Source: Candidatus Saccharimonadota bacterium (GTDB lineage Bacteria > Patescibacteriota > Saccharimonadia > Saccharimonadales > UBA4665). From it: a stretch of DNA of 32,000 bases. A model generated the notes under the pieces. It was not told the DNA's origin, searched no databases, and worked only from the letters and a program-made list of their open reading frames with translations. Below, piece after piece: positions 6,298-30,114 of this stretch. Each line of letters opens with the position of its first letter. Positions within the stretch are counted from its first letter, which is position 1. Made by a program: the position numbers and the translations under genes. The stretch spans positions 990,001 to 1,022,000 of the forward strand of contig CP064992.1 in assembly GCA_016699935.1 (NCBI GenBank). Reading direction: 5' to 3'.

Positions 6298-7224
6298 ATG
6301 GTTATGGTTCGTTTAGAGAAAAAAATGATTCGTCCGGTTGTTTCGCTTGGTTTCGTTGCTCTGGTAGCAGTGTTTGTCTGGCAAAACTGGGAAACGTTTG
6401 GACAGAGTATAAAGGTAATAAAAAGTGCTTCGTTGGATGATTTCTGGTTGGCGATTCCCTTGGTTGGCCTTACCTTTTTACTCGCAGTGTTTTCGTATGG
6501 TTTTTGGCTTTCCGGCGGCTAAAGCTACGGGAGCTACTGATCGTTGAGCTTGCAGCAGCGTTTATAAATCGTTTAATCCCCTCTGGCTTAGGCGGATTGG
6601 GCGTGCACGGCCTGTACCTACACAAACGGCGCCATTCGGTCGCAGAAGCAACCGCGGTGGTAAGTATCAATAACCTCCTCGGAATGAGTGTTCACTTACT
6701 TTTGCTTGGGTTTATTCTGGTGGCTGGATCTGCTGGCCAGTTACACCTGGGATGGTCACAAAAACAGGGGTGGGTATTACTTGGGATTGGTTTCGTGATT
6801 GGAGCGGCACTGCTAATGCGGCGCGCTAGGCGCATAGTAATTCGCTTTGTGCGAAACTTGCTAGTTAGCCTGCGTCGGTATGAACGTCAGCCGCACAGAC
6901 TCGTTTACGCTGCGCTGCACTGTGCGCTCTTACGATCACCAATGTGCTCATCCTCCATTTGGCTGCTCGTAATTTTGGCGTGTGGCTCGACCTTCCCAGC
7001 TGTTTCTCGTCTACACAGGTGGCGTCTTGCTCGGTGCGGCCGTACCGACTCCAGGCGGTCTTGCGGGTGTTGAAGCTGGGCTTGTGGGTGGTTTCATGGC
7101 TTACGGTGTGGCCGGTACCACCGCCATAGCAATCGCCCTCGCCTTTCGCCTGGCTACCTACTGGCTCCCAATGCTACCCGGAGTCATAGCTTTGTTTGCG
7201 GCAAATAGAAAACACTTGATCTAA
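6298..7224 (+). pseudogene. UPF0104 / lysyl-PG-synthase-TM-like (flippase-like) polytopic membrane protein, about three frame breaks as sequenced
   Basis: Pieces in frame 1 (6298-6522), frame 0 (6504 to ~6930), frame 2 (~6920-7006: LTITNVLILHLAARNFGVWLDLPS) and frame 1 (6982-7224) read as one protein. The C-terminal AVPTPGGLAGVEAGLVGGFMAYGV...AFRLATYWLPMLPG is the family signature. Confidence 0.6.
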
Positions 7225-7279
7225 GGTTGAATTTAACGACCCCTCAGGTAGAATTACGTCTAGCTATATCGGTAGCCAT

Positions 7280-7641
7280 TGGGGTTATCAAGTGGTAAGG
7301 CACCAGCTGTTTGAGCGCTGAAAGCGCGAGTAAATATTCAAACGGTCCTGGACCAAAACATTACCAGTTGGCGGACCCGCACCGTACATTTCACATCATT
7401 GGGGGTTGGCCAAGTGGTAAGGCACCAGCTGTTTGAGCGCTGAAAGCGCGAGTAAATAATCAAACGGTCCTGGACAAAACATTACCAGTTGGCGGACCCG
7501 CACCGCACATTTCACATCATTGGGGTTGGCCAAGTGGTAAGGCACCAGCTGTTTGAGCGCTGAAAGCGCGAGTAAATAATCAAACGGTCCAGGACCAAAA
7601 CATTACCAGTTGGCGGACCCGCACCGCACATTTCACATCAT
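7280..7641 (+). repeat. three tandem 120/121/121-bp units, each starting with the 5' half of tRNA-Gln and containing an antisense tRNA-Gln half
   Basis: Unit starts at 7280, 7400 and 7521. Units are near-identical with a few substitutions and indels. See findings. Confidence 0.95.
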
Positions 7642-7714
7642 TGGGGTTGGCCAAGTGGTAAGGCACCAGGTTTTGGTCCTGGCATTCGGGGGTTCGAATC
7701 CCTCACCCCAGCCA
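7642..7714 (+). tRNA. tRNA-Gln, anticodon UUG, CCA encoded
   Basis: TGGGGTTGGCCAAGTGGTAAGGCACCAGGTTTTGGTCCTGGCATTCGGGGGTTCGAATCCCTCACCCCAGCCA. The anticodon arm is CCAGG-TTTTGGT-CCTGG and the T loop is TTCGAAT. Closely resembles E. coli tRNA-Gln2 (from memory). The acceptor/T-stem junction looks 1 nt short by hand folding. Confidence 0.9.
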
Positions 7715-7735
7715 AATTAGTTTTAACTATTTTAA

Positions 7736-7768
7736 CCAAACCACGACCCCTGTCGTGGTTTGGCTTTT
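7736..7768 (+). terminator. rho-independent terminator after tRNA-Gln
   Basis: CCAAACCACGAC-CCCT-GTCGTGGTTTGG followed by CTTTT. Confidence 0.75.
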
Positions 7769-7790
7769 ATGTTAGGTATAGTTTGGTTAC

Positions 7791-7818
7791 GTTCTATATG
7801 ACCCCTGAAATATAGAAC
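7791..7818 (-). terminator. hairpin just downstream of the copA stop
   Basis: GTTCTATAT-(10 nt)-ATATAGAAC, 9-bp stem, 16 nt after the copA stop. No clear T tail. Confidence 0.4.
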
Positions 7819-7833
7819 GATTTATGCAAAAAC

Positions 7834-10800
7834 CTATTCAGTAACTACGAAACTTGAATCAACAAAGTGCATATTATCTAGTTCGGTCTTTGTTTCTGGC
7901 AATGTGTAAACAATGACATTATTGCCGAAGAAGTCTTTGATCGTATCTCCATCATTGGCAAACAATTTGTTTTCTCTCATCATCTTGGCTTCAGCGTATC
8001 CGACATACATAGGGTAGTATGTTGTATCACCGATTATTGCAGGTACCGTAGATTTTATATCGTCTTTGAGCTTCTCGGGTACCAGGCCTTCTATGAAGTA
8101 GAACATCTTGGTAGTGCCATTGGTTTCATCGACAACTTGTAAGCGGGCGGCATTTTCAATATCCTTAAATGAATTTGGTGACAAGAAATGATATGAATCC
8201 GCAAGGGTGCCAGTTGGTTTCAATATGCCCCGCACGGTGACATTTTTTGCCCCGAACAAGTCTGGCAGTACATCTCCAACATTCTTGAACAGACCTTCTT
8301 CTTTCATCATCTTCGCTTCACTGCTTCCTATGACGACGCTTTGCCCCGTCAACTCACTTGTTCCACTTTCTACCTGAAATGAGCCAGGCAGTGACGACAC
8401 CGACGCAAACAGCTTAGGCGTTTCGTTTTCGGTGAAGGCAACGACATTTTCGCTACTGGCAATAGTGTCATTTATAGACTTTTGACTTTCGATTGACACG
8501 GTTGCGCTATTAGCTGACATTGCCCCTTGTGCATCCATCTCAGAACTCAGTTTCGCAAACGATATAAACAAGGCAGTGAACAGCACGGCCATTACTATAG
8601 GAGCGACGGCTGAGATCCAATTTCGTTTACCTGGTCGATAGGTACGCAATGTTAACGAGTTTGTAACCACCGATATCGAGCTAAGCGCCATTGCAATTCC
8701 AGCGAGCTCGGGTCTCAATACTAGCCCCGCAAATGCAAATACTCGGGCGGCTATAGGTATACCAACAACGTTGTAGAACAAGGCGAAGAACAAATTCTGA
8801 CGAATTTTGCTAACTGTCGCCTTAGAGATCTGGATCGCCTCTGCCACATCGCGCAGGTCGTTTTTGATGATGACAATGCCGCCAGCTTCCATGGCGACAT
8901 CAGTGCCATTCCCCATAGCTATACCCAGATCAGCTTGTGCAAGTGCAGGCGCATCGTTTATGCCATCACCTACCATCGCAACAACTTTACCGCCCTGCTG
9001 AATACGCACAATATTTGTAGCCTTGTCCTCTGGCAACACTTCAGCAAGTACATTGGTTATGCCTACTTGAGCAGCAATAGCCTGTGCGGTTCGTTTATTA
9101 TCTCCCGTAATCATCCAAGTCTCTATGTCTCGAGCATGAAGAGCGTCAATAGCCGCTTTAGAGGTCTCTTTGACTGTGTCCGCAACGGCAATTACACCTA
9201 CGATTTCAGTCTCCGTAGCGAGGATCATTGCGGTCTTCCCCCCAGTCTCAAGCCGTTCAATTTTTTTCTCAAGACGATCCAGCGCTAGCCCGAGCTTTTC
9301 GGTCACCAGTCGACGATTGCCAAAATAGTACCATTTATCATGTAGTTTCGCTTTAACCCCATGGCCAGGGATAGCCTCGAACCCGTTTGTTTCAATTAGC
9401 GTTACGCCTTCTTCTTCTGTGTGACGGTAAATCGCTTCGGCAAGCGGGTGCTCGCTGGCTTTCTCTATGCTGGCAGCAATCTGAAGCACGTCATCCTCGT
9501 CAAATGCGCCCAATGCAATGATGTCTGTTACTTCTGGCTTACCGTTTGTGAGCGTACCTGTTTTGTCAAAAACTATGGTGTTAACCTTACAGGCAATTTC
9601 TAATGGTTCTCCACCTTTGATAAGAATGCCATTCTCAGCAGCCTTACCTGTACCCACCATCAGGGCTGTTGGTGTAGCTAATCCCAGCGCACATGGACAC
9701 GCGATGACTATTACTGCAGTAAACGCCATGATTGCATAGGCGAATGTTGCTCCGAGCAGAAAATACCACACGACGAAAGTCAGAATGGCTATGCCGATGA
9801 CTGCCGGGACAAACCACGATGAGATACGGTCTGCAAAGCCCTGAATCGGCGCCTTGGAGCCCTGCGCATCTTCGATGAGGCGAATGATACGAGACAGGGT
9901 AGTTTCGCTTCCGACACGGGTTGCTGTGAATTCAAAACTTCCAGTTTTATTGATCGTTGCCCCAACGACAGTATTTCCAACTATTTTTTCAACGGGTAAA
10001 CTTTCACCAGTTATCATGGATTCGTCAACCGCAGATGTACCTTTACTGATCACGCCATCTACCGGAACTTTTTCACCAGGACGAACAAGAATCGTCTCGC
10101 CATTTACTACTTGGTCAATGGGTATATCGATGGTCACGCCGTCACGTATAACACGCGCGGTTTTGGCCTGCATCCCCATCAACTTTTTGATGGCATCAGA
10201 TGTTCTATTTTTAGCACGGGCCTCAAGCCACTTTCCCAAGATAACAAACGTGATCAGAAATGCAGCGGTTTCAAAATACTGCTCGGGAATCTTTTCACCA
10301 TTCAGTCCTATCAGTGACTGGTTTGTCACTGCATAGATAATGAAGTAGATTAAGCTATAGAAAAATGCTGTCGATGTACCAATAGCAATAAGACTATCCA
10401 TGTTAAATGTCTTCATCTTGAAGCCAGACCACATTCCTTTATAGAATCCGGCACCGATAATGAACTGGATAGGAAGCGTCAAGATAAGTGATACGATAGC
10501 AAAATAGGGTGGCAGTGTCTGGCCACCAGGCAAAGCCGGAAAGAAATCCAGCAACATGAAGTAGAGCATGGGCAAACTCAGCACCATACTAATGAGAAAC
10601 TTATTGCGAAGGCTGGTTATAGCATGTGCTCGGTTCATCTTCTCTTTTGCTTCTGCTTCTTCGCTGTCGAGCATTTCGGCGCGATACCCAGCCTTTTTAA
10701 CCGCGTCGAGAAGCGCAACGGGCTGCACAGAACCATCCGTATTTACGAGTGCCTTCTCAGCAGCAAAATTGACATTCGCCTTGGAAACACCGGGTACTTT

Positions 10801-11436
10801 AGACAGTTGCTTTTCAATAATACCCGCACACGACGAGCAGTGCATGCCATAAATTGCCAATCTTGATGTCGCAGATCCTTGCGAAACTGGTTGAGGAAGT
10901 TGGATGGGTGCTGATGGTTGTGGCGCACTATCAGCTTTATTTTTTGGCATAAAGATGGATGATAGGGCCTGCACGATGCTGGTTGCAGCCACCGCTTGTT
11001 TTGACGGTGTATTCTCGTCAATATCGTGATCTTTTCCATCTATGGTAATTGATTTCGTGTCGCTCATTTTACCGATAAATACTGGTTTTCCGTTTGAATC
11101 AAGGGAAACAGTGCCATCGGCAACAGTTTGCAGTTCAACTTTCACATGCTGTGGATGCTTCGCCGGTATGTCGATAGTTTCGCTAGCTGATGAATCTGAA
11201 GGGCTCGCCGACAGCGATTTGCCACTAACTATAGAGGCGTCGTACCCCGCAGTTTTTACTGCAGAAAGTATACCGTCTTCATTTACGACTTTCTCGTCAA
11301 ACATTACTTCGCCACCCTTATCTGTGGTAGTTATGGTGGAGTGGTGAATTCCAGGTAAGTCTTCTAGTTCCGATGCGATGAGCTTTTCGCAGGACTCACA
11401 GTGCATCTTAGGAACTGATAGCTGTATTGTTTTCAT
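7834..11436 (-). CDS. copA: copper-translocating P1B-type ATPase with two N-terminal HMA domains, an extra C-terminal TM helix and a 237-aa repeat-containing tail
   Basis: MHCESC and MHCSSC HMA motifs, [37 protein letters not shown]. Single uninterrupted 1200-aa ORF. RBS GAGGAT lies upstream of the ATG. Confidence 0.95.
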
Positions 11437-11438
11437 AA

Positions 11439-11648
11439 TTATTTATCCTCAGCTCGGTAGCTGCTATCACCAAAAGCAGTGTTAATTTCTTGGGCGGTGA
11501 TAGGTCGTTCGGCCTGAACATTTGCTGTTTTGGTTTCTAGATCTACCTGTGCATCAAGCACGCCGTTAATATTCTTTATTCGTTTTGTCGTCAGTTTCGC
11601 GCATGCCTCGCATGTCATGCCACTGATAGTAAATGTTTGACTCGTCAT
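11439..11648 (-). CDS. copZ: copper chaperone, HMA domain
   Basis: 69 aa with a GMTCEAC metal-binding motif. Its stop is 2 nt before the copA ATG. Confidence 0.9.
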
Positions 11649-11657
11649 ATTCGTCCT

Positions 11658-13002
11658 TTACTCCGTTACTGTTATTGAACCGCGAGGCACACCCATGGCA
11701 CACGCAATTGTATAGGTGCCTGGTTTTGTTGCGGTAAAAGTTAATTCTATCTTCTTACCCTTCTTCAAATACTGCGGGCTATCGTCGAGACCGATGATCA
11801 TGATCGTACTCATACAACCTTGGCCATCCTCTTTCACATCAACCACTAGGGTTGTTTTTTGTCCTGCCTTGGCGGTAAATGTGCTCGGGGCAATATCTTC
11901 TTTCAGTTTAAATGTCGTATTTAAGATTACTGAGCCTTCGGAGGACTCCTGCTGTACTGCCGTATTTACCATCGGCTTTGAGCTATCGAGGAATCGATTG
12001 AGACCAGCGAGAGTAAACCCGTTTGTGAAATTGATCAGTGCCATTGCGACAACGACCACTCCAACTATGCGAAAGAACCGCTGTGCAAATGCTCCCTTAA
12101 CTACTGACGTAAGACCACCTAGGGTTAATAGTCCCGGAGTTGTACCAATCGCAAATGCACCCATAATTACCGCTGCCTGCAATGGATTCCCCGTACTCAC
12201 GGCAAATAACTGCATGGCCTGTGTGAAACCACACGGCAGAAAGAAAGTGGCCGCTCCCATTAGAAACGCGTTTTTGTGGCTATACTCACGTTCTTTTCGA
12301 GTGTGTATGCTTTTTTTTGGCAAGGCCACTCGGCAGGGTGAGCCCACGCGTTATCCGCGGGAATATCTCTGTCAGTTGCAACCCGAGTACCAGCATGACA
12401 GCCCCGACGGCAATCGTGATAAGACCGAGCAATGTACCCTTGAGTGCAAACGCTGAGCCAATCGCGCCAATGAATGCACCGAATGCGATGAATGAGACTA
12501 TCCGACCAGCATTGAAAAATAAATGTGGACGGAATTTCTGTAACGCTGTCTCGGTTGGGTGGTTCTCGGCATATTTAGAAGCAACGCTTATGACAAGGCC
12601 GCCGATCAGAGCCATGCAGGTTGAGAACCCTGCAGTCAATCCTACCAAAAGTGCCATCGTCCCGGTGCTGCTATTACTGGTTGTAGAGGAGGTTAATTTA
12701 TCTATTCCAAATACCTGAAAGAGCACATATAGTCCCAGAACGACTATGATGCCAATCGCAAAATCTTTCCAAATTCGCTCGTTACGTGTGAAGAGAGGCT
12801 TTTGTTCACTTTCGTACCCAACTTCATATCCTGCAGCCTGCACGGCTCTCTCAATATCCTTATCTGATACTTGTTCCACGCTGATTATTGTTGCTGAGTT
12901 AGATTTGAGGCTTGCTCTAGCGGAAGTAACACTAGGGATTGATTCTAGCTCCTCAGCTATGAGTAGCTCACATGATGCGCAGTGCATGCCTTTGATTGGC
13001 AC
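11658..13002 (-). pseudogene. HMA domain - DsbD_2/TauE-SafE-like permease - cupredoxin-like domain fusion, frame broken in an A8 tract as sequenced
   Basis: ORF 12286-13002 carries GMHCASC, TM helices and GFSTCMALIGG. ORF 11658-12347 carries FFLPCGFTQAMQ, TM helices and a beta-rich C-terminus (KPGTYTIACAMGVPRGSITV). They join inside the T8 run (plus strand) at 12311-12318. The start (GTG 13002) is uncertain. Confidence 0.75.
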
Positions 13003-13170
13003 AGTTTTTCGAGGGCGTGCGATTGCGAATCGTCGTCTCGCTGCATGAGTCGATTCCTTCGAGATGATTTATGTTTTGTCATCGCTGACGCCTTGTACGA
13101 AGATTTATTTTTAATGATTCCATAGTAGTTCCTTCTTTGTAGTTAATAGATACAGTCAAAGAAGGTTGGT

Positions 13171-13530
13171 CTAAATACGCAGATTTTCAGTCAGAATTAC
13201 TATGTCTGGCGGTCGGAATGACGATGAGGTAATTCGGTTCGTTTTCTGCTTTTTAGGTTCGGCATAGTCGGTAGAGATGCTCAAATAGTATGACGACTCT
13301 TGAGGAGCGCCGTCATCATCGTCATTTTTAAGTTGATCTATCTCTTTTGCTGTAGGCGGAGTAGGGGCTTGATGCTGATTCATGCAGCTGACAATATCTA
13401 CGTCTGAATGACCCATATCGTCCATTGATGACATAGCGAACGTCGGTGAGCCTGCAATGGCAGGTATGATAATAGAAATCGCAACTACGATGGGTAAAAG
13501 AAGTCGGTTAATGTGTAGTTTATTTAACAT
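13171..13530 (-). CDS. small secreted protein with a Met/His/Cys-rich N-terminal mature region and an acidic tract (function unknown)
   Basis: The signal-like MLNKLHINRLLLPIVVAISIIIPAIAGSPTFA is followed by MSSMDDMGHSDVDIVSCMNQHQ. An AGGA sequence lies 9-12 nt upstream of ATG 13530, so I prefer that start to the ORF-track start 13608. Confidence 0.5.
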   Translation of the reverse strand: MLNKLHINRLLLPIVVAISIIIPAIAGSPTFAMSSMDDMGHSDVDIVSCMNQHQAPTPPTAKEIDQLKNDDDDGAPQESSYYLSISTDYAEPKKQKTNRITSSSFRPPDIVILTENLRI

Positions 13531-13616
13531 AGTGTGCATCCTACTCACAAATATACTCCAAATAAATAACATATTCAATAGTGCGCATATATGTATATTA
13601 TGGTACACTTAGTGAC
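13531..13616. promoter_or_regulatory. divergent promoter/operator region between the two metal-homeostasis transcription units
   Basis: 86-bp AT-rich spacer with the palindromes CATATATG and TATT-C-AATA, and AATATAC/GTATATT inverted repeats. No operator is proven. Confidence 0.4.
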
Positions 13617-14111
13617 ATGAGCAGTGATATATTATCTATCCAAGAAGAAATCTTTAAACTTATTGGTAACCAGAAACGGCTTGAGATACTTCTTTTACTA
13701 GAAAACCGTAAGCTAAACGTTGGTGAGATGACTGACATGCTAGGTCTCCGACAGGCAAATCTCTCACAACATCTCACCCTTCTCCGCGCACAACATCTTG
13801 TTGAAGTACGAAAGAAAGGGCGTGAATCTTTTTATAGCCTTGCCGATGATAGTATCGCAGTCGCGATTCGAACAATCCATGACTTTCTTCGCAAGACCCA
13901 CCGTATTGATGCGCCTTTTGATAGCAATTCCTTGTTCCCAATTGTCACTGATCCAGTTTGCGGCATGCGATTCAGCGCTTCGAAAGCATTTTCGCATATT
14001 GATAAAAACGGTAAACAGTACCATTTTTGTGCGAGTGGCTGCGAGTCTTCCTTTAAGGCTAGCGTAAAACTAACTAATGAAGAGCAATTTGCTCAAACCA
14101 TTCACGCATAG
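13617..14111 (+). CDS. ArsR/SmtB-family metalloregulator fused to a C-terminal YHS/TRASH metal-binding domain
   Basis: The wHTH region reads KRLEILLLLENRKLNVGEMTDMLGLRQANLSQHLTLLRAQHLV. The C-terminal DPVCGM...YHFCASGC is a YHS/TRASH motif. ATG 13617 is preferred to GTG 13581. Confidence 0.85.
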   Translation: MSSDILSIQEEIFKLIGNQKRLEILLLLENRKLNVGEMTDMLGLRQANLSQHLTLLRAQHLVEVRKKGRESFYSLADDSIAVAIRTIHDFLRKTHRIDAPFDSNSLFPIVTDPVCGMRFSASKAFSHIDKNGKQYHFCASGCESSFKASVKLTNEEQFAQTIHA

Positions 14112-14120
14112 GAGGAAAAC

Positions 14121-14764
14121 ATGAAAAAACTCAATTTGTAGCCTTTGGGTTGATAATTATACTGTTGTTAGTTGTAATATTGCTTCTGAACAATAAATCA
14201 CAGAATATGTTGAACTCTTCTACTGAAACAGGTCAAAATTCTCAGTCAGGTAGTCAAACAGGCAGTATGTATGCCAGCATGACGGGCGATCAGTTCGACA
14301 AAGCATACCTAACTGATATGATTGCACATCATCAAGGCGCCCTCAACATGGCAAGCCAAGCCCGAGAGCTGGCAACAAAATCAGAAATTCGAACCCTAGC
14401 TGATGCGATACTTTCTTCTCAAGCTACTGAGGTTCAACAAATGATGGATTGGCAACAGGAATGGGAGTATTCAACAACTGATATCAGTAACCCGCATGCA
14501 GGCCATATGATGGAATCAAGCGGTAGTATGGGCGACGATATGGCCAATATGGAGGCAAAGCTAAACGGTTTGAGTGGCGAAGCCTACGACAAAGAATTTT
14601 TAAAACAGATGATTCTGCATCATCAACAAGCGGTTGATATGTCGAAATATGCAGATACAAACGCCAAGCATCAGGAAGTGAAAGATTTAGCACAAGCGGT
14701 CATTTCTGCACAAGAAAAAGAAATTGCTGACATGAAGAGTTGGCAACAAAAGTGGGGATTCTAA
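14121..14764 (+). CDS. DUF305 family protein (two HH-motif repeats), N-terminus displaced by a 1-nt frame problem
   Basis: FDKAYLTDMIAHHQGALNMA and YDKEFLKQMILHHQQAVDMS are DUF305 signatures. AGGAGG at 14110-14115 plus ATG 14121 is out of frame with ORF 14150-14764 unless the A6 run 14124-14129 is A7. Confidence 0.8.
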
Positions 14765-14770
14765 AGGCAT

Positions 14771-15412
14771 ATGCGCAAGGTGCTGGTGGGCGGGGCTTTA
14801 CTAATCCTAATTACTGGAGCCACTTATCTTACGCCCACCATTCAAGATTTCATTAGCAACAAACAGACACCTACTAAAGTTGCCACTAGCAAGACACAGG
14901 CGAAAGTAGCTGAGTCCAGAGACCCTCATGCTCATGATTTTAGCGACGTTGATTATGCCCAAAAGAAATTAATCCATCACCAATTAGGTGCCATGATTGC
15001 CGACAAAGCAAAAATTGATGCAACCAGGCCAGAAATACGACAACTAGCCGAGCAAGTAAGCTCACAGGAAACGGAACGAGCAAACGTCTATACGGCACTG
15101 CTCACTTCATGGGAAGAAAGCTACTTGAATATTACCGATTTCCCGGAAACAGGTGGCTGTAATGGTTACCCAACGTTTTCTGGCATGTTACCTCATCTTG
15201 ATGTTGGAAAATATCGGTTATCGAGCGGCGAAAGCGTAGACACAACATTTTTAGCCCTATTAATAGAGCATCATAAAAAAGCCACTGATCTAATGAAACT
15301 TGAAGGTGCAAAAATAGGGTATGGCGAGTTAGTTAAGCTGCGCGAGACTTCACAGGAAGATTACAAAGCAGAAATAAGCACCTTTGAAACGTTACAAAAA
15401 TCAATTCTATAG
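14771..15412 (+). CDS. DUF305-like protein, divergent paralog with N-terminal TM/signal
   Basis: DVDYAQKKLIHHQLGAMIA and VDTTFLALLIEHHKKATDLM repeats. N-terminus MRKVLVGGALLILITGATYL. Confidence 0.7.
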   Translation: MRKVLVGGALLILITGATYLTPTIQDFISNKQTPTKVATSKTQAKVAESRDPHAHDFSDVDYAQKKLIHHQLGAMIADKAKIDATRPEIRQLAEQVSSQETERANVYTALLTSWEESYLNITDFPETGGCNGYPTFSGMLPHLDVGKYRLSSGESVDTTFLALLIEHHKKATDLMKLEGAKIGYGELVKLRETSQEDYKAEISTFETLQKSIL

Positions 15413-15433
15413 CCATACCGTTGATTCATTTTA

Positions 15434-15907
15434 CTAATTAGGACATCTAATGTGCTTCTTCATTTGGCGGACTAGTGAGCTCGAAACCGATCGGCGCATT
15501 ATTTCGCAACTGTCACTTTGAGATAATATATTAAGGCTTCCTTCCCACAGAATCTCATTGTCAATGATAGCGATCTTCCGATGGTGTTTAACCGTATACA
15601 ACACCGTTATGCCGATGCTCTGCATATCCTGCACGGCTTTGTATGCCTGGTCGATATATTTGCCATCGTGTTCATTCGGAGGTCGCGTGTTTACTGTAAT
15701 TTGAATCCCTCTTTGTCGTGCTTGCCTCAATATGGGCAAAAGCATATCTATTCGCTTTGTTGTTATGAACGGGCTCTCAATATATATGTTTTGGTTTGCG
15801 CGCCGAAGATCTCCGATGAACGCTTTGTAGAATGTTTCGTTATCAAATAGTCGTGAAGTGCATAGCGCGGCTGTATCAAGGCTGTTGGAGAATAGTCGCT
15901 TAAACAT
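15434..15907 (-). CDS. phospholipase D-family (single HKD) Nuc-like nuclease
   Basis: HHRKIAIIDNEILWEGSLN matches HxK(x)4D(x)6GSxN. About 157 aa. ATG 15907 overlaps the upstream gene's stop (ATGTTTAA). Confidence 0.75.
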   Translation of the reverse strand: MFKRLFSNSLDTAALCTSRLFDNETFYKAFIGDLRRANQNIYIESPFITTKRIDMLLPILRQARQRGIQITVNTRPPNEHDGKYIDQAYKAVQDMQSIGITVLYTVKHHRKIAIIDNEILWEGSLNILSQSDSCEIMRRSVSSSLVRQMKKHIRCPN

Positions 15908-16184
15908 CGCTATTATCCACGTCCTCATCATCGTCATCTCGTTCGCCGACGCCTAGGCTATCTAGTCCGATCAAAGTTCTATAATCGTCCCTCATCCCCA
16001 GCCATGAAGTTTTACAGAGAAGATAGTGTCCGATTATTCTAGATATAGCGATGTAGATGCTTTTTAAATGTGGCAAAGACTCAGCTAGATGAGACAAGAG
16101 GAACATATTCCTCGTTTCTTCATCAACATGTCTTATCAGACGAGTTACTAAATAAGATAGGTTCAAGACTAGTTCAGAAGCCAT
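15900..16184 (-). CDS. hypothetical 94-aa protein with acidic C-terminal tail (GERDDDDEDVDNSDV)
   Basis: ORF translationally coupled to the PLD gene. I recognise no motif. Confidence 0.45.
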   Translation of the reverse strand: MASELVLNLSYLVTRLIRHVDEETRNMFLLSHLAESLPHLKSIYIAISRIIGHYLLCKTSWLGMRDDYRTLIGLDSLGVGERDDDDEDVDNSDV

Positions 16185-18231: not shown

Positions 18232-18265
18232 CCTACGCCCTAAGCCCTACGCCCTAAGCCCTAGC
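18232..18265. repeat. 14-bp tandem repeat (CCTACGCCCTAAGC x2 plus a partial unit)
   Basis: Read directly in the convergent intergenic region between capA and the M15 peptidase. Confidence 0.85.
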
Positions 18266-28607: not shown

Positions 28608-28637
28608 AATGCCAATGCCAATGCCAATGCCAATGCT
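28608..28637. repeat. hexanucleotide microsatellite (AATGCC)x4 plus AATGCT
   Basis: Read directly. Located between the dnaB stop and the start of the downstream membrane-protein gene. Confidence 0.9.
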
Positions 28638-30030: not shown

Positions 30031-30114
30031 AGTGTCTCTTAACTCTTATCTCTTTACTCTTATCTCTGTCTGTTGACTATGATTCTAGCAGTTCGGCGCC
30101 GCCAAAGATATTGC

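Follow-up and report, generated by a model that had tools for sequence, protein, structure and literature searches.

T-box leader RNAs (Rfam RF00230) are 5' leader rods in which the Specifier loop of Stem I displays, on the 3' side of an internal loop, a single-stranded stretch complementary to a tRNA anticodon, and in which a terminator/antiterminator switch, or a sequestrator, lies between the leader and the regulated gene, a synthetase or biosynthetic gene. Other known arrangements bring non-tRNA or partial tRNA sequence next to a tRNA gene. Integrases leave partial tRNA copies (att repeats) at genomic-island junctions, and these duplicate the 3' part of the tRNA and lie at the far end of the island. 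In the split tRNA genes of Nanoarchaeum and related archaea, a tRNA half is followed by a sequence that forms a long helix with a complementary partner; split or intron-containing tRNAs of the archaeal type have a bulge-helix-bulge motif at the junctions and a splicing endonuclease. Regulatory RNAs can be released from pre-tRNA spacers, as with the 3'ETS of leuZ in Escherichia coli, which is co-transcribed with the tRNA and acts by base pairing with an sRNA. Finally, tRNA-derived MITE/SINE-type repeats are hairpin-forming and dispersed. Here we describe a locus in a Candidatus Saccharibacteria genome in which three tandem copies of a hairpin, built from a sense and an antisense half of tRNA-Gln, sit between a promoter-like site and the intact tRNA-Gln gene. 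Because single copies of the same unannotated element are kept in other Saccharibacteria, it is probably a functional leader RNA rather than a scar.

Results

We analyzed a 32,000-nt stretch of contig CP064992.1 (assembly GCA_016699935.1), referred to here as the window. The tandem tRNA-Gln-half array described in a sequence-only reading of this DNA is real. Tandem Repeats Finder reported a period of 121 nt, 3.3 copies at 7277-7669, 96% matches and a score of 728, with the array ending inside the tRNA. ARAGORN and the Rfam tRNA model (RF00005) saw only one tRNA, tRNA-Gln(UUG) at 7641-7713 (55.7 bits), and called none of the units. All five unit parts of the sequence-only reading were present: the tRNA 5' half, the 39-nt insert, the complement of the anticodon arm, the antisense arm and the linker. 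The features of the locus are as follows, where L numbers designate the roughly 160 loci fetched for comparison.

7227-7254 (+), promoter-like site TTGAAT-16 nt-TAGAAT, 25 nt upstream of unit 1 and homologous to the region upstream of the leftmost tRNA fragment in L039; its function is inferred.
7280-7399 (+), unit 1, the most diverged copy, whose sense half reads TGGGGTTATCAAG instead of the tRNA sequence and whose hairpin is the weakest.
7400-7520 (+), unit 2.
7521-7641 (+), unit 3, next to the tRNA; the central base of the GGTCCNGGACC palindrome is A here, giving 13 contiguous bases complementary to tRNA nt 31-43.
7521-7548 (+), sense half of unit 3, tRNA-Gln nt 1-30 (acceptor 5' strand, D arm, CCAG of the anticodon stem), identified by identity with 7642-7669; also at 7280-7306 and 7400-7428.
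7549-7587 (+), apical module of unit 3, CTGTTTGA-GCGC(T)-loop-(A)GCGC-GAGTAAATAA-TCAAACGG, not derived from the tRNA; also at 7307-7345 and 7429-7467. Its GAGCGC...GCGCGAG core is conserved in L107, L132, L094 and L136.
7594-7601 (+), anti-anticodon stretch ACCAAAAC of unit 3, on the 3' side of an internal loop and complementary to tRNA-Gln G31-U38, so that it contains the Gln codon CAA; also at 7352-7359, and at 7474-7480 as ACAAAAC.
7602-7623 (+), antisense arm ATTACCAGTTGGCGGACCCGCA of unit 3, a diverged reverse complement of tRNA nt 1-22 that pairs with the sense half.
7624-7640 (+), linker CCGCACATTTCACATCA; the motif G(C/T)ACATTTCA recurs in the linkers of family-1 loci (those with the unit described here) and of family-2 loci (those with a second module, below).
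7641-7714 (+), intact tRNA-Gln(UUG), including the encoded CCA.
7736-7763 (+), terminator-like hairpin followed by a T-run, the first such site after the promoter-like site.

The 39-nt insert occurs three times in the window with at most 1 mismatch, against 0 expected by chance. As the sequence-only reading had stated, GGACCAAAAC is the exact reverse complement of the anticodon loop plus 3' stem. The antisense arm matches the reverse complement of the tRNA 5' half at 18 of 22 positions with one gap, where 17 had been counted by hand. Each unit is predicted to fold on the + strand as a long hairpin, a rod of about 105 nt, with energies of -36.9, -47.9 and -44.2 kcal/mol for units 1 to 3 and z-scores of -2.2, -4.3 and -3.6 against shuffles, whereas the - strand folds no better than shuffles. 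The anti-anticodon stretch is largely unpaired in the folds of the best-folding units, although part of it pairs in some, and its predicted duplex with the anticodon loop is -12.5 kcal/mol. Because the whole 121-nt period is repeated at 96% identity without unique spacers, the array is not a CRISPR array.

We next asked whether the differences between copies are real. The 1-nt indels that the sequence-only reading had listed among them (GGGG versus GGGGG, ACC versus AC) fall in homopolymers. The assembly carries frameshifts in three genes, most of them at T5-T8 runs, and its tRNA has G4/C4 where relatives have G5/C5, so that the acceptor G and C runs are probably each under-called by one base. 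These indels are therefore probably sequencing errors. The substitutions remain: copy 1 has TTATCAAG, AATATT and CCGTACA, and the central base of the palindrome is T, T and A in copies 1 to 3. The homopolymer errors, together with the fact that short-read contigs of the closest relative break in or at the tRNA, raised the possibility that one unit is real and the extra copies reflect mis-assembly. We consider this very unlikely, since the copies differ by substitutions and not only by indels, the error type suggests long reads, which span 400 bp easily (an inference), the contig is reported as 1.23 Mb, and contig breaks in the relative are what a true repeat would cause.

To determine whether the unit exists elsewhere, we surveyed 105 Saccharibacteria-type tRNA-Gln loci with at least 300 nt of upstream sequence. 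We defined family 1 as sense tRNA-Gln nt 1-30, a GAGCGC/GCGCGAG apical hairpin, A(C/A)CAAAA in an internal loop and an antisense arm, all placed 117-127 nt upstream of the tRNA-Gln start. A covariance model of the unit (R1) found it only directly upstream of tRNA-Gln, with scores of 119 bits in L132, 110 in L107, 90 in L094/L138 and 40 in L136, which was not in the seed. The three window units matched R1 over its full length at 69.6, 85.3 and 87.3 bits, respectively. Single copies lie between a promoter and tRNA-Gln in four other lineages, and L113 and L159 look like two further, divergent members, whereas about 88% of the sampled tRNA-Gln loci lack any such element, so that it is dispensable. 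The neighboring gene of L138 has Saccharibacteria homologues, and look-ups around those homologues gave no new members. The flanks of these loci share no detectable similarity, while unit plus tRNA are 74-84% identical.

We found no support for the suggestion that the unit is a tRNA-derived MITE-like repeat: no copy away from tRNA-Gln was found in the window or in about 160 loci, and the unit has no target-site duplications and no terminal inverted repeats of the MITE type. A scan of a genome collection with the apical 24-mer CTGTTTGAGCGCTGAAAGCGCGAG returned 21 hits, all unrelated, comprising a dispersed hairpin repeat of about 200 nt in Methylophilaceae and a repeat in one Blautia genome. 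These share only the 24-mer with the unit and have no Rfam family; as the 24-mer holds a GCGC...GCGC palindrome, chance or convergence is plausible, and we rejected the hits as evidence of dispersal. A scan of 2.9 million viral contigs with the apical-core pattern gave mostly coding-sequence matches (LFER...RE) and no copy of the unit, and viral scans with the family-2 P1 pattern gave nothing.

A different possibility is that the units are the footprint of a small intron-like, homing or integrative element that entered the anticodon region of tRNA-Gln, brought or created a second copy of the 5' part, and spread between lineages by recombination through tRNA homology, the hairpin being an end structure of that element. 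Consistent with this, the native promoter lies next to the leftmost fragment, as expected after insertion into the gene, fragment junctions differ between loci (nt 17/18, 30/31 and the T arm), and the distribution across tRNA sequence types is patchy. An array of tRNA-Gln 5' fragments in L119 holds a GIY-YIG nuclease gene, and a tRNA-Arg in L159 also has a 5' fragment plus an insert upstream, both of which hint at an insertional origin; only 10 non-Gln tRNAs were present in the loci, too few for a rate comparison. In addition, tRNA-Gln is demonstrably an integration site (see below). However, the unit has no coding capacity, no integrase or transposase lies nearby, no copy was found at any other site in the window or the fetched loci or, for the core pattern, among the viral contigs, known tRNA-targeting integrases duplicate the 3' and not the 5' part of the tRNA, and the antisense arm tracks the lineage-specific sense half, which a newly arriving element could not do. 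We therefore regard this origin as unlikely.

The stem is conserved as structure. In the alignment, 89% of cells are paired, against 33-41% when partners are slid, seven pairs show double changes, and 0 of 500 shuffles reach the observed values. Examples are G6-C with U7-A versus U6-A with G7-C, and C9-G versus U9-A. The antisense arm fits the unit's own sense half better than the adjacent tRNA at 6 of 7 informative positions. Only five independent lineages support the covariation, the alignment was fitted to the model, and the shuffle control ignores relatedness; apparent covariation could also partly reflect units born from, or exchanged with, different tRNA alleles, and a DNA palindrome can be kept complementary by gene conversion. 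The structure is biased to the tRNA strand: G-U against A-C mismatches are 21:9, and the + strand fold is 7-18 kcal/mol better than the - strand fold in four lineages, although L136, L113 and L159 show no + strand advantage. The anti-anticodon stretch is invariant or nearly so across family members, with A(C/A)CAAAA kept in every member and at least partly unpaired in most predicted folds. A second, unrelated structured module in tRNA-Gln leaders (family 2) also covaries, with 20 of 30 pairs showing compensatory changes, indicating that leaders of this tRNA do host selected RNA structures.

These data bear on whether the unit might instead act as DNA, for example as a cruciform or folded single-strand recombination site recognized by a recombinase or a replication protein. 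The unit is an imperfect palindrome, and GGTCCAGGACC in unit 3 is a perfect DNA palindrome. However, the strand asymmetry and G-U bias are not expected for a double-stranded DNA site, no recombinase gene lies nearby, and the position between promoter and tRNA is fixed, making this reading very unlikely.

A promoter scan placed the promoter-like site 25 nt upstream of unit 1 and found no terminator-like site on the + strand between 7254 and 7736. A -10 box lies 15-40 nt upstream of the unit in L094, L113, L107, L136 and L159. A further promoter-like sequence inside units 2 and 3 (TTGAGC-16-AATAAT) is not conserved in other members. Likewise, we discounted a 41-amino-acid open reading frame inside the array, because members differ by indels that are not multiples of three, and a kink-turn reading of UUU-GA-GCGC/GCGC-GA, rejected by inspection because the position that should start the C stem would be G opposite G.

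The metal-resistance cluster next to the array proved to be a separate event, defined by two features:

7715-15987 (no strand assigned), an 8.3-kb island inserted into the 3' end of tRNA-Gln, carrying a P1B-ATPase, HMA proteins, an ArsR/YHS regulator, two DUF305 proteins and a PLD-like protein (Pfam hits).
15988-16004 (+), a 17-nt direct repeat of the tRNA-Gln 3' end, TCCCTCATCCCCAGCCA, followed by the native downstream flank (16005-16023) and thus the far junction of the island.

The repeat plus flank aligns closely, with only a few mismatches, with the tRNA 3' end plus downstream flank of L039, and the PGA_cap-VanY-hydrolase synteny with L035 resumes after the island. The ATPase has Saccharibacteria homologues at 87-91% identity, and the protein encoded upstream is 100% identical to an NCBI Saccharibacteria protein on a 1.23-Mb contig, both supporting the assignment of the genome to Candidatus Saccharibacteria. 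The same gene cluster sits in other contexts in relatives, and following synteny through the ATPase led away from the tRNA because the cluster is mobile. The statement of the sequence-only reading that no integrase lies nearby is correct, since Pfam scans of open reading frames across 860-21350 found no integrase or recombinase, but the cluster is nonetheless an integrated island whose repeat is that of an integrase att scar. The 5' units, in contrast, repeat the 5' part of the tRNA, lie upstream and bound nothing, carry a conserved structured insert and an antisense arm, and covary across lineages.

We then compared the units with the other described systems. Like a T-box, each unit is a 5' leader rod with the cognate codon, followed by a purine, on the 3' side of an internal loop (A-C-CAA-A-A-C in the folds of the window units, L107, L132 and L094). 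However, a covariance-model scan of 7150-7850 at E values up to 10 listed no T-box hit, although the T-box model does fire on an unrelated locus, L021. There is no T-box sequence and no terminator/antiterminator switch, the downstream gene is the tRNA itself, the complement covers the whole 7-nt loop, and the scaffold is built from tRNA halves. In contrast to archaeal split tRNAs, the partner strand lies within the same unit, and an intact tRNA gene is present in this bacterium, so that neither joining nor splicing is needed. As with the leuZ 3'ETS, a non-tRNA segment co-transcribed with a tRNA could be released by normal processing and act by base pairing, but here the segment is a 5' leader derived from the tRNA itself, and its candidate target is the tRNA's own anticodon loop. 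The remark of the sequence-only reading that no described element has this architecture agrees with Rfam 15, which returned nothing but the tRNA, and full-text literature searches found no description of such an element.

Discussion

We propose, with only moderate confidence, that the array is three tandem copies of a conserved, co-transcribed, tRNA-derived 5' leader element of the tRNA-Gln(UUG) transcript of Saccharibacteria. The interpretations offered by the sequence-only reading were thus supported in part. Of its three candidates, a structured leader is best supported, although the more specific idea of bait for anticodon nucleases, itself speculative, fits poorly, because the unit displays the complement of the anticodon loop and not the loop itself. 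Scars of repeated recombination are only partly right, in that they do not explain a unit conserved across lineages with unrelated flanks, whereas unequal recombination remains the likeliest cause of the triplication and a true integration scar exists on the other side of the tRNA.

Our analysis shows that the family exists and always sits in this position, that its stem is conserved through compensatory changes, that the structure is biased to the tRNA strand and that the anti-anticodon stretch is conserved. Transcription, processing, tRNA binding, function and the route to three copies are inferred from sequence alone, without expression data. In this view, one promoter (7227-7254) would drive units 1, 2 and 3 and then the tRNA, each unit would fold on itself, with the sense copy of tRNA nt 1-30 paired to the antisense arm and the apical GAGCGC/GCGCGAG hairpin capping the rod, and RNase P would then release the tRNA. 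Expansion from a single unit, as carried by other lineages, would have occurred by unequal recombination or replication slippage between the 30-nt direct repeats formed by each unit's sense half and the 5' half of the tRNA.

An alternative that we consider less likely, but possible, is that the unit is a neutral or slightly harmful relic, an old direct plus inverted partial duplication of the tRNA-Gln 5' region. The antisense arm would then be kept complementary only because it neutralizes a leader-borne decoy 5' half, or through palindrome gene conversion, and the three copies would be a recent slippage product with no function. Most sampled loci lack the element, copies 2 and 3 are almost identical, so that the amplification is recent, and 30-nt direct repeats spaced 121 nt apart are a classic slippage substrate. 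Moreover, nearest-neighbor folding of the whole precursor prefers the other register, in which the antisense arm pairs with the real tRNA, and the element could therefore be harmful rather than useful. However, the parts not derived from the tRNA (GAGCGC...GCGCGAG and the anti-anticodon stretch) are conserved across lineages whose flanks have lost all similarity, and the G-U bias and strand asymmetry point to selection on RNA. In addition, Saccharibacteria genomes are about 1 Mb and compact, so we infer that a useless 120-nt insert should be lost by the same recombination that amplifies it. Even as a relic, the locus would remain a clear example of how 30-nt repeats at a tRNA gene expand, and such repeats break short-read assemblies at tRNA-Gln.

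The likeliest activity, which on its own is only a tentative inference, is pairing of ACCAAAAC, displayed in the conserved internal loop, with the anticodon loop of tRNA-Gln, either in the precursor or in trans. Such pairing would couple folding, processing or availability of tRNA-Gln to the free tRNA-Gln pool, the principle being the codon display of a T-box Specifier loop in a different scaffold. Taken further, an unlikely but not excluded possibility is that the leader senses or titrates its own product, in cis or after RNase P release, setting how much mature tRNA-Gln is made or left free, with copy number (one unit versus three) acting as a dosage knob. It would then be a tRNA-binding leader class unrelated to T-boxes, found in CPR bacteria, and together with the family-2 module it would mean that Saccharibacteria tRNA-Gln loci carry a small repertoire of unannotated tRNA-derived regulatory RNAs.

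If the leader is functional, it adds a new structured RNA family to a phylum with almost no characterized noncoding RNAs, in which genomes of about 1 Mb make retained noncoding elements notable. It would also be, to our knowledge, the first case of a tRNA transcript that carries a conserved complement of its own anticodon loop, suggesting self-regulation of a tRNA, a principle so far seen, in T-boxes, only for genes that use tRNAs.

Three tandem units precede an intact tRNA-Gln gene

The observation made in the sequence-only reading, that three tandem units built from tRNA-Gln halves are fused to an intact tRNA-Gln, holds, whereas its interpretation is only partly supported. Tandem Repeats Finder reported a 121-nt period with 96% matches and a score of 728, and inspection of the sequence showed that the fourth repeat of the first 28-30 nt is the 5' end of the intact tRNA. 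The features of the locus are as follows.

7277-7669: tandem array, 3.3 copies of a 121-nt period
7280, 7400 and 7521: starts of units 1, 2 and 3, each of which folds into one long hairpin on the + strand
7641-7713: intact tRNA-Gln(UUG), as placed by ARAGORN
7736-7763: first terminator-like hairpin, which follows the tRNA
7834-11436: heavy-metal ATPase gene
15988-16004: 17-nt direct repeat of the tRNA 3' end

The Rfam tRNA model scored the intact tRNA at 55.7 bits, and neither ARAGORN nor the Rfam model called any unit a tRNA. The 39-nt insert occurs three times with at most one mismatch, against zero occurrences expected by chance, GGACCAAAAC is the exact reverse complement of the anticodon loop plus 3' stem, and the next 23 nt match the reverse complement of the tRNA 5' half at 18 of 22 positions. 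The predicted hairpin energies of units 1 to 3 were -36.9, -47.9 and -44.2 kcal/mol (z = -2.2 to -4.3), whereas the - strand folded no better than shuffled sequence.

The heavy-metal ATPase has 87-91% identical homologues named Candidatus Saccharibacteria, and the gene upstream of the array is 100% identical to an NCBI Saccharibacteria protein on a 1,226,308-bp contig. Three genes in the window, cyoE, the flippase-like gene and the HMA-DsbD gene, are broken by frameshifts (5747, 6503, 6917, 7002, 12300 and 12995), most of which fall at runs of 5-8 T, which looks like long-read homopolymer error rather than gene decay. The tRNA also has four G and four C in its acceptor stem where relatives have five. 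As the 1-nt differences between the copies (GGGG/GGGGG, ACC/AC) are likewise in homopolymers, they are best treated as sequencing errors. The substitutions remain, however: copy 1 is the most diverged, and copy 3 differs from copy 2 at the central base of GGTCCNGGACC. An assembly artefact in copy number is very unlikely. Short tandem repeats with periods of 6-14 nt, such as CATGACT x5 just upstream of cyoB, also occur in the window at 1919-1954, 18232-18263, 28608-28636 and 30035-30067.

The metal-resistance cluster is a separate event

In relatives, the gene order is cyo operon, flippase-like gene, tRNA-Gln, and then PGA_cap, VanY and a hydrolase. The window has the same order, with 8.3 kb of metal-resistance genes inserted after the tRNA (7715-16023). 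The 17-nt copy of the tRNA 3' end at 15988-16004 is followed by the flank that lies directly downstream of the tRNA in L039, a tRNA-Gln locus of a relative, and the two stretches align closely. This is the usual signature of an island integrated into the 3' end of a tRNA gene. No integrase was found in the window, a PLD-like gene sits at the far end of the island, and the same gene cluster sits in other contexts in other genomes, next to FtsK, HNH and Eco57I-type genes or csoR. The integration explains why the array sits at the border of the cluster, as the sequence-only reading had noted, but it does not explain the 5' units. A tRNA 3'-like remnant (CTGTTA(A)TCTGGGGTTCGAATCCCTTA(A/T)GCC) also lies downstream of tRNA-Gln in two other genomes (L026 9670-9720; L027 5650-5700; L039 6278-6312); it could be an older integration scar or the remains of a neighboring tRNA.

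The unit is one member of a family

To ask whether the unit occurs elsewhere, we scanned metagenome contigs with the Saccharibacteria-type tRNA-Gln pattern, which gave 120 loci. Among 105 metagenomic and genomic loci with at least 300 nt of upstream sequence, 13 carry a tRNA-Gln 5' fragment in front of the intact tRNA. In six distinct loci (seven contigs, since loci L094 and L138 carry the same sequence), the fragment belongs to the same element as in the window, although we count two of them, L113 and L159, which share the layout and the anti-anticodon stretch but score weakly, only as divergent or possible members. The element comprises tRNA nt 1-31, C(C)UGUYYGAGYGC-loop-GCRCGAG, an A-rich stretch, UCCAUG(C)GACCAAAAC, an antisense arm and a linker of 20-28 nt, and it starts 117-127 nt before the tRNA. 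A covariance model built from four of these loci found, in about 0.9 Mb of loci, only L132 (119 bits), L107 (110 bits), L094/L138 (90 bits), L136 (40 bits, not in the seed) and the three window units (70-87 bits). All of the other loci carry one unit, and only the window carries three. The neighboring gene of L138 has Saccharibacteria homologues. The flanks of these loci share no detectable similarity, whereas unit plus tRNA are 74-84% identical. A neutral relic is possible, though we consider it unlikely, as it does not explain the conservation of the parts not derived from the tRNA across lineages with unrelated flanks.

Dispersed hairpin repeats in Methylophilaceae (loci L001-L019; about 200 nt long, several copies per genome), in Blautia (L020-L021) and on a viral contig (L164) carry at their apex the same CUGUUUGAGCGC-loop-GCGCGAG(U) motif as the apical module of the unit. 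They have no Rfam family, and the similarity may reflect either a shared RNA or DNA motif or convergence.

Other tRNA loci carry related layouts. In a second leader family, upstream of tRNA-Gln in L039 (5982-6137), L041, L096, L105, L120 and L146, a pseudo-tRNA-Gln is interrupted after nt 17 (D loop) and/or in the T arm by a module of about 90 nt that reads UGA(A)GA, hairpin, UYGCAAGG, long hairpin, GUGAAG, hairpin. Across 7 copies, 20 of 30 pairs show compensatory changes, and there is no Rfam match. L120 has one module in each of the two loops that normally form the tRNA elbow. In tRNA-Gln locus L119 (about 7827-8301), three 89-nt tandem units lie upstream of the intact tRNA, each holding a tRNA-Gln 5' fragment in which the anticodon arm is replaced by CCCGC-UUA-GCGGG, and an 81-amino-acid GIY-YIG nuclease ORF is inserted in one unit (Pfam E = 2.9e-11). 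In L159 (about 319-413), tRNA-Arg(CCG) is also preceded by an 18-nt copy of its own 5' end and a structured insert of about 77 nt, showing that the layout of fragment, insert and intact tRNA is not limited to tRNA-Gln. The GIY-YIG gene in L119 and the tRNA-Arg of L159, together with the position of the native promoter next to the leftmost fragment and the different junction positions between loci, suggest that the units could be the footprint of a tRNA-targeting mobile element. We consider this unlikely, because there is no integrase or transposase nearby, no dispersed copy in the window or in about 160 fetched loci and no phage copy in 2.9 million viral contigs scanned for the core pattern, and because the antisense arm tracks the local sense half.

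Evidence that the hairpin is selected as RNA

On the model-based alignment, 89% of cells are paired, against 33-41% when partners are slid, and seven pairs have changes on both sides, with no shuffle out of 500 reaching the observed values. Concrete cases are G6-C with U7-A in the window versus U6-A with G7-C elsewhere, and C9-G in L107 versus U9-A in L132. These figures rest on only five independent lineages and on an alignment that was fitted to the structure, and palindrome gene conversion or exchange between tRNA alleles could mimic part of the signal. Where the sense half of a unit differs from the adjacent tRNA, the antisense arm pairs with the unit's own half at 6 of 7 positions. G-U pairs outnumber A-C mismatches 21 to 9, and the + strand folds 7-18 kcal/mol better than the - strand in the window, L107, L132 and L094, although it does not in L136, L113 or L159. 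A DNA-level site is accordingly among the least likely explanations.

Transcription context

A promoter-like site, TTGAAT-16-TAGAAT, ends 25 nt before unit 1, and the first terminator-like hairpin, at 7736-7763, follows the tRNA. In L094, a promoter with an extended -10 box also ends 25 nt before the unit and, by eye, good -10 boxes lie 15-40 nt upstream of the unit in L107, L113, L136 and L159. The linkers have no promoter with usable spacing. A further promoter-like site, TTGAGC-16-AATAAT, lies inside units 2 and 3 (7433-7460 and 7553-7580), but it is not conserved in other family members. We therefore infer a single transcript, consisting of the leader unit or units and then the tRNA.

A candidate activity and the origin of the three copies

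The most conserved single-stranded feature is A(C/A)CAAAA(C), on the 3' side of the internal loop. It is complementary to G31-U38 of tRNA-Gln and includes the codon CAA followed by a purine, and the predicted duplex with the anticodon loop is -12.5 kcal/mol in the window. L105, a member of the second leader family, carries a perfect mirror-image anticodon arm, CCAGG-ACCAAAA-CCUGG. This resembles the codon display of a T-box Specifier loop, but the element is not a T-box, because there is no model match, no antiterminator and no terminator.

Folding of the whole precursor (7262-7716) gives a warning, in that the predicted minimum-energy structure uses the other register, such that each antisense arm pairs with the next sense half, the last arm pairs with the 5' half and anticodon arm of the real tRNA, and the unit 1 acceptor strand pairs with the tRNA 3' acceptor strand. 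The result is a giant tRNA-like fold instead of three hairpins plus a cloverleaf, and the duplex energies are -49.8 against -32.7 kcal/mol. The order of transcription and the covariation favor the in-unit hairpin. Even so, the leader can in principle compete with tRNA folding, which could be a cost or a control point.

One unit places two 30-nt direct repeats, the sense half of the unit and the tRNA 5' half, 121 nt apart, and unequal recombination or slippage between them deletes or duplicates exactly one period. This mechanism is established, but its action here is inferred. Copies 2 and 3 are nearly identical and the outermost copy is the most diverged, which fits recent expansion. Short-read contigs of the closest relative (ATPase 91% identical) stop at nt 1 of the tRNA and inside it, which is consistent with a repeat there but is not proof. 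Taken together, the array, its single-unit homologues and the pairing changes in their stems come directly from the sequence comparisons, whereas cotranscription with the tRNA, expansion by recombination or slippage and any pairing with the anticodon loop are inferred.

Rfam 15 gave only the tRNA for the window and for twelve related loci, and searches of the literature found nothing similar. We regard the element as probably a structured 5' leader RNA derived from a tRNA; that kind of RNA is already known, and what is new is the form that it takes here. If the anticodon-pairing reading is right, it would be a new class of tRNA-binding leader.
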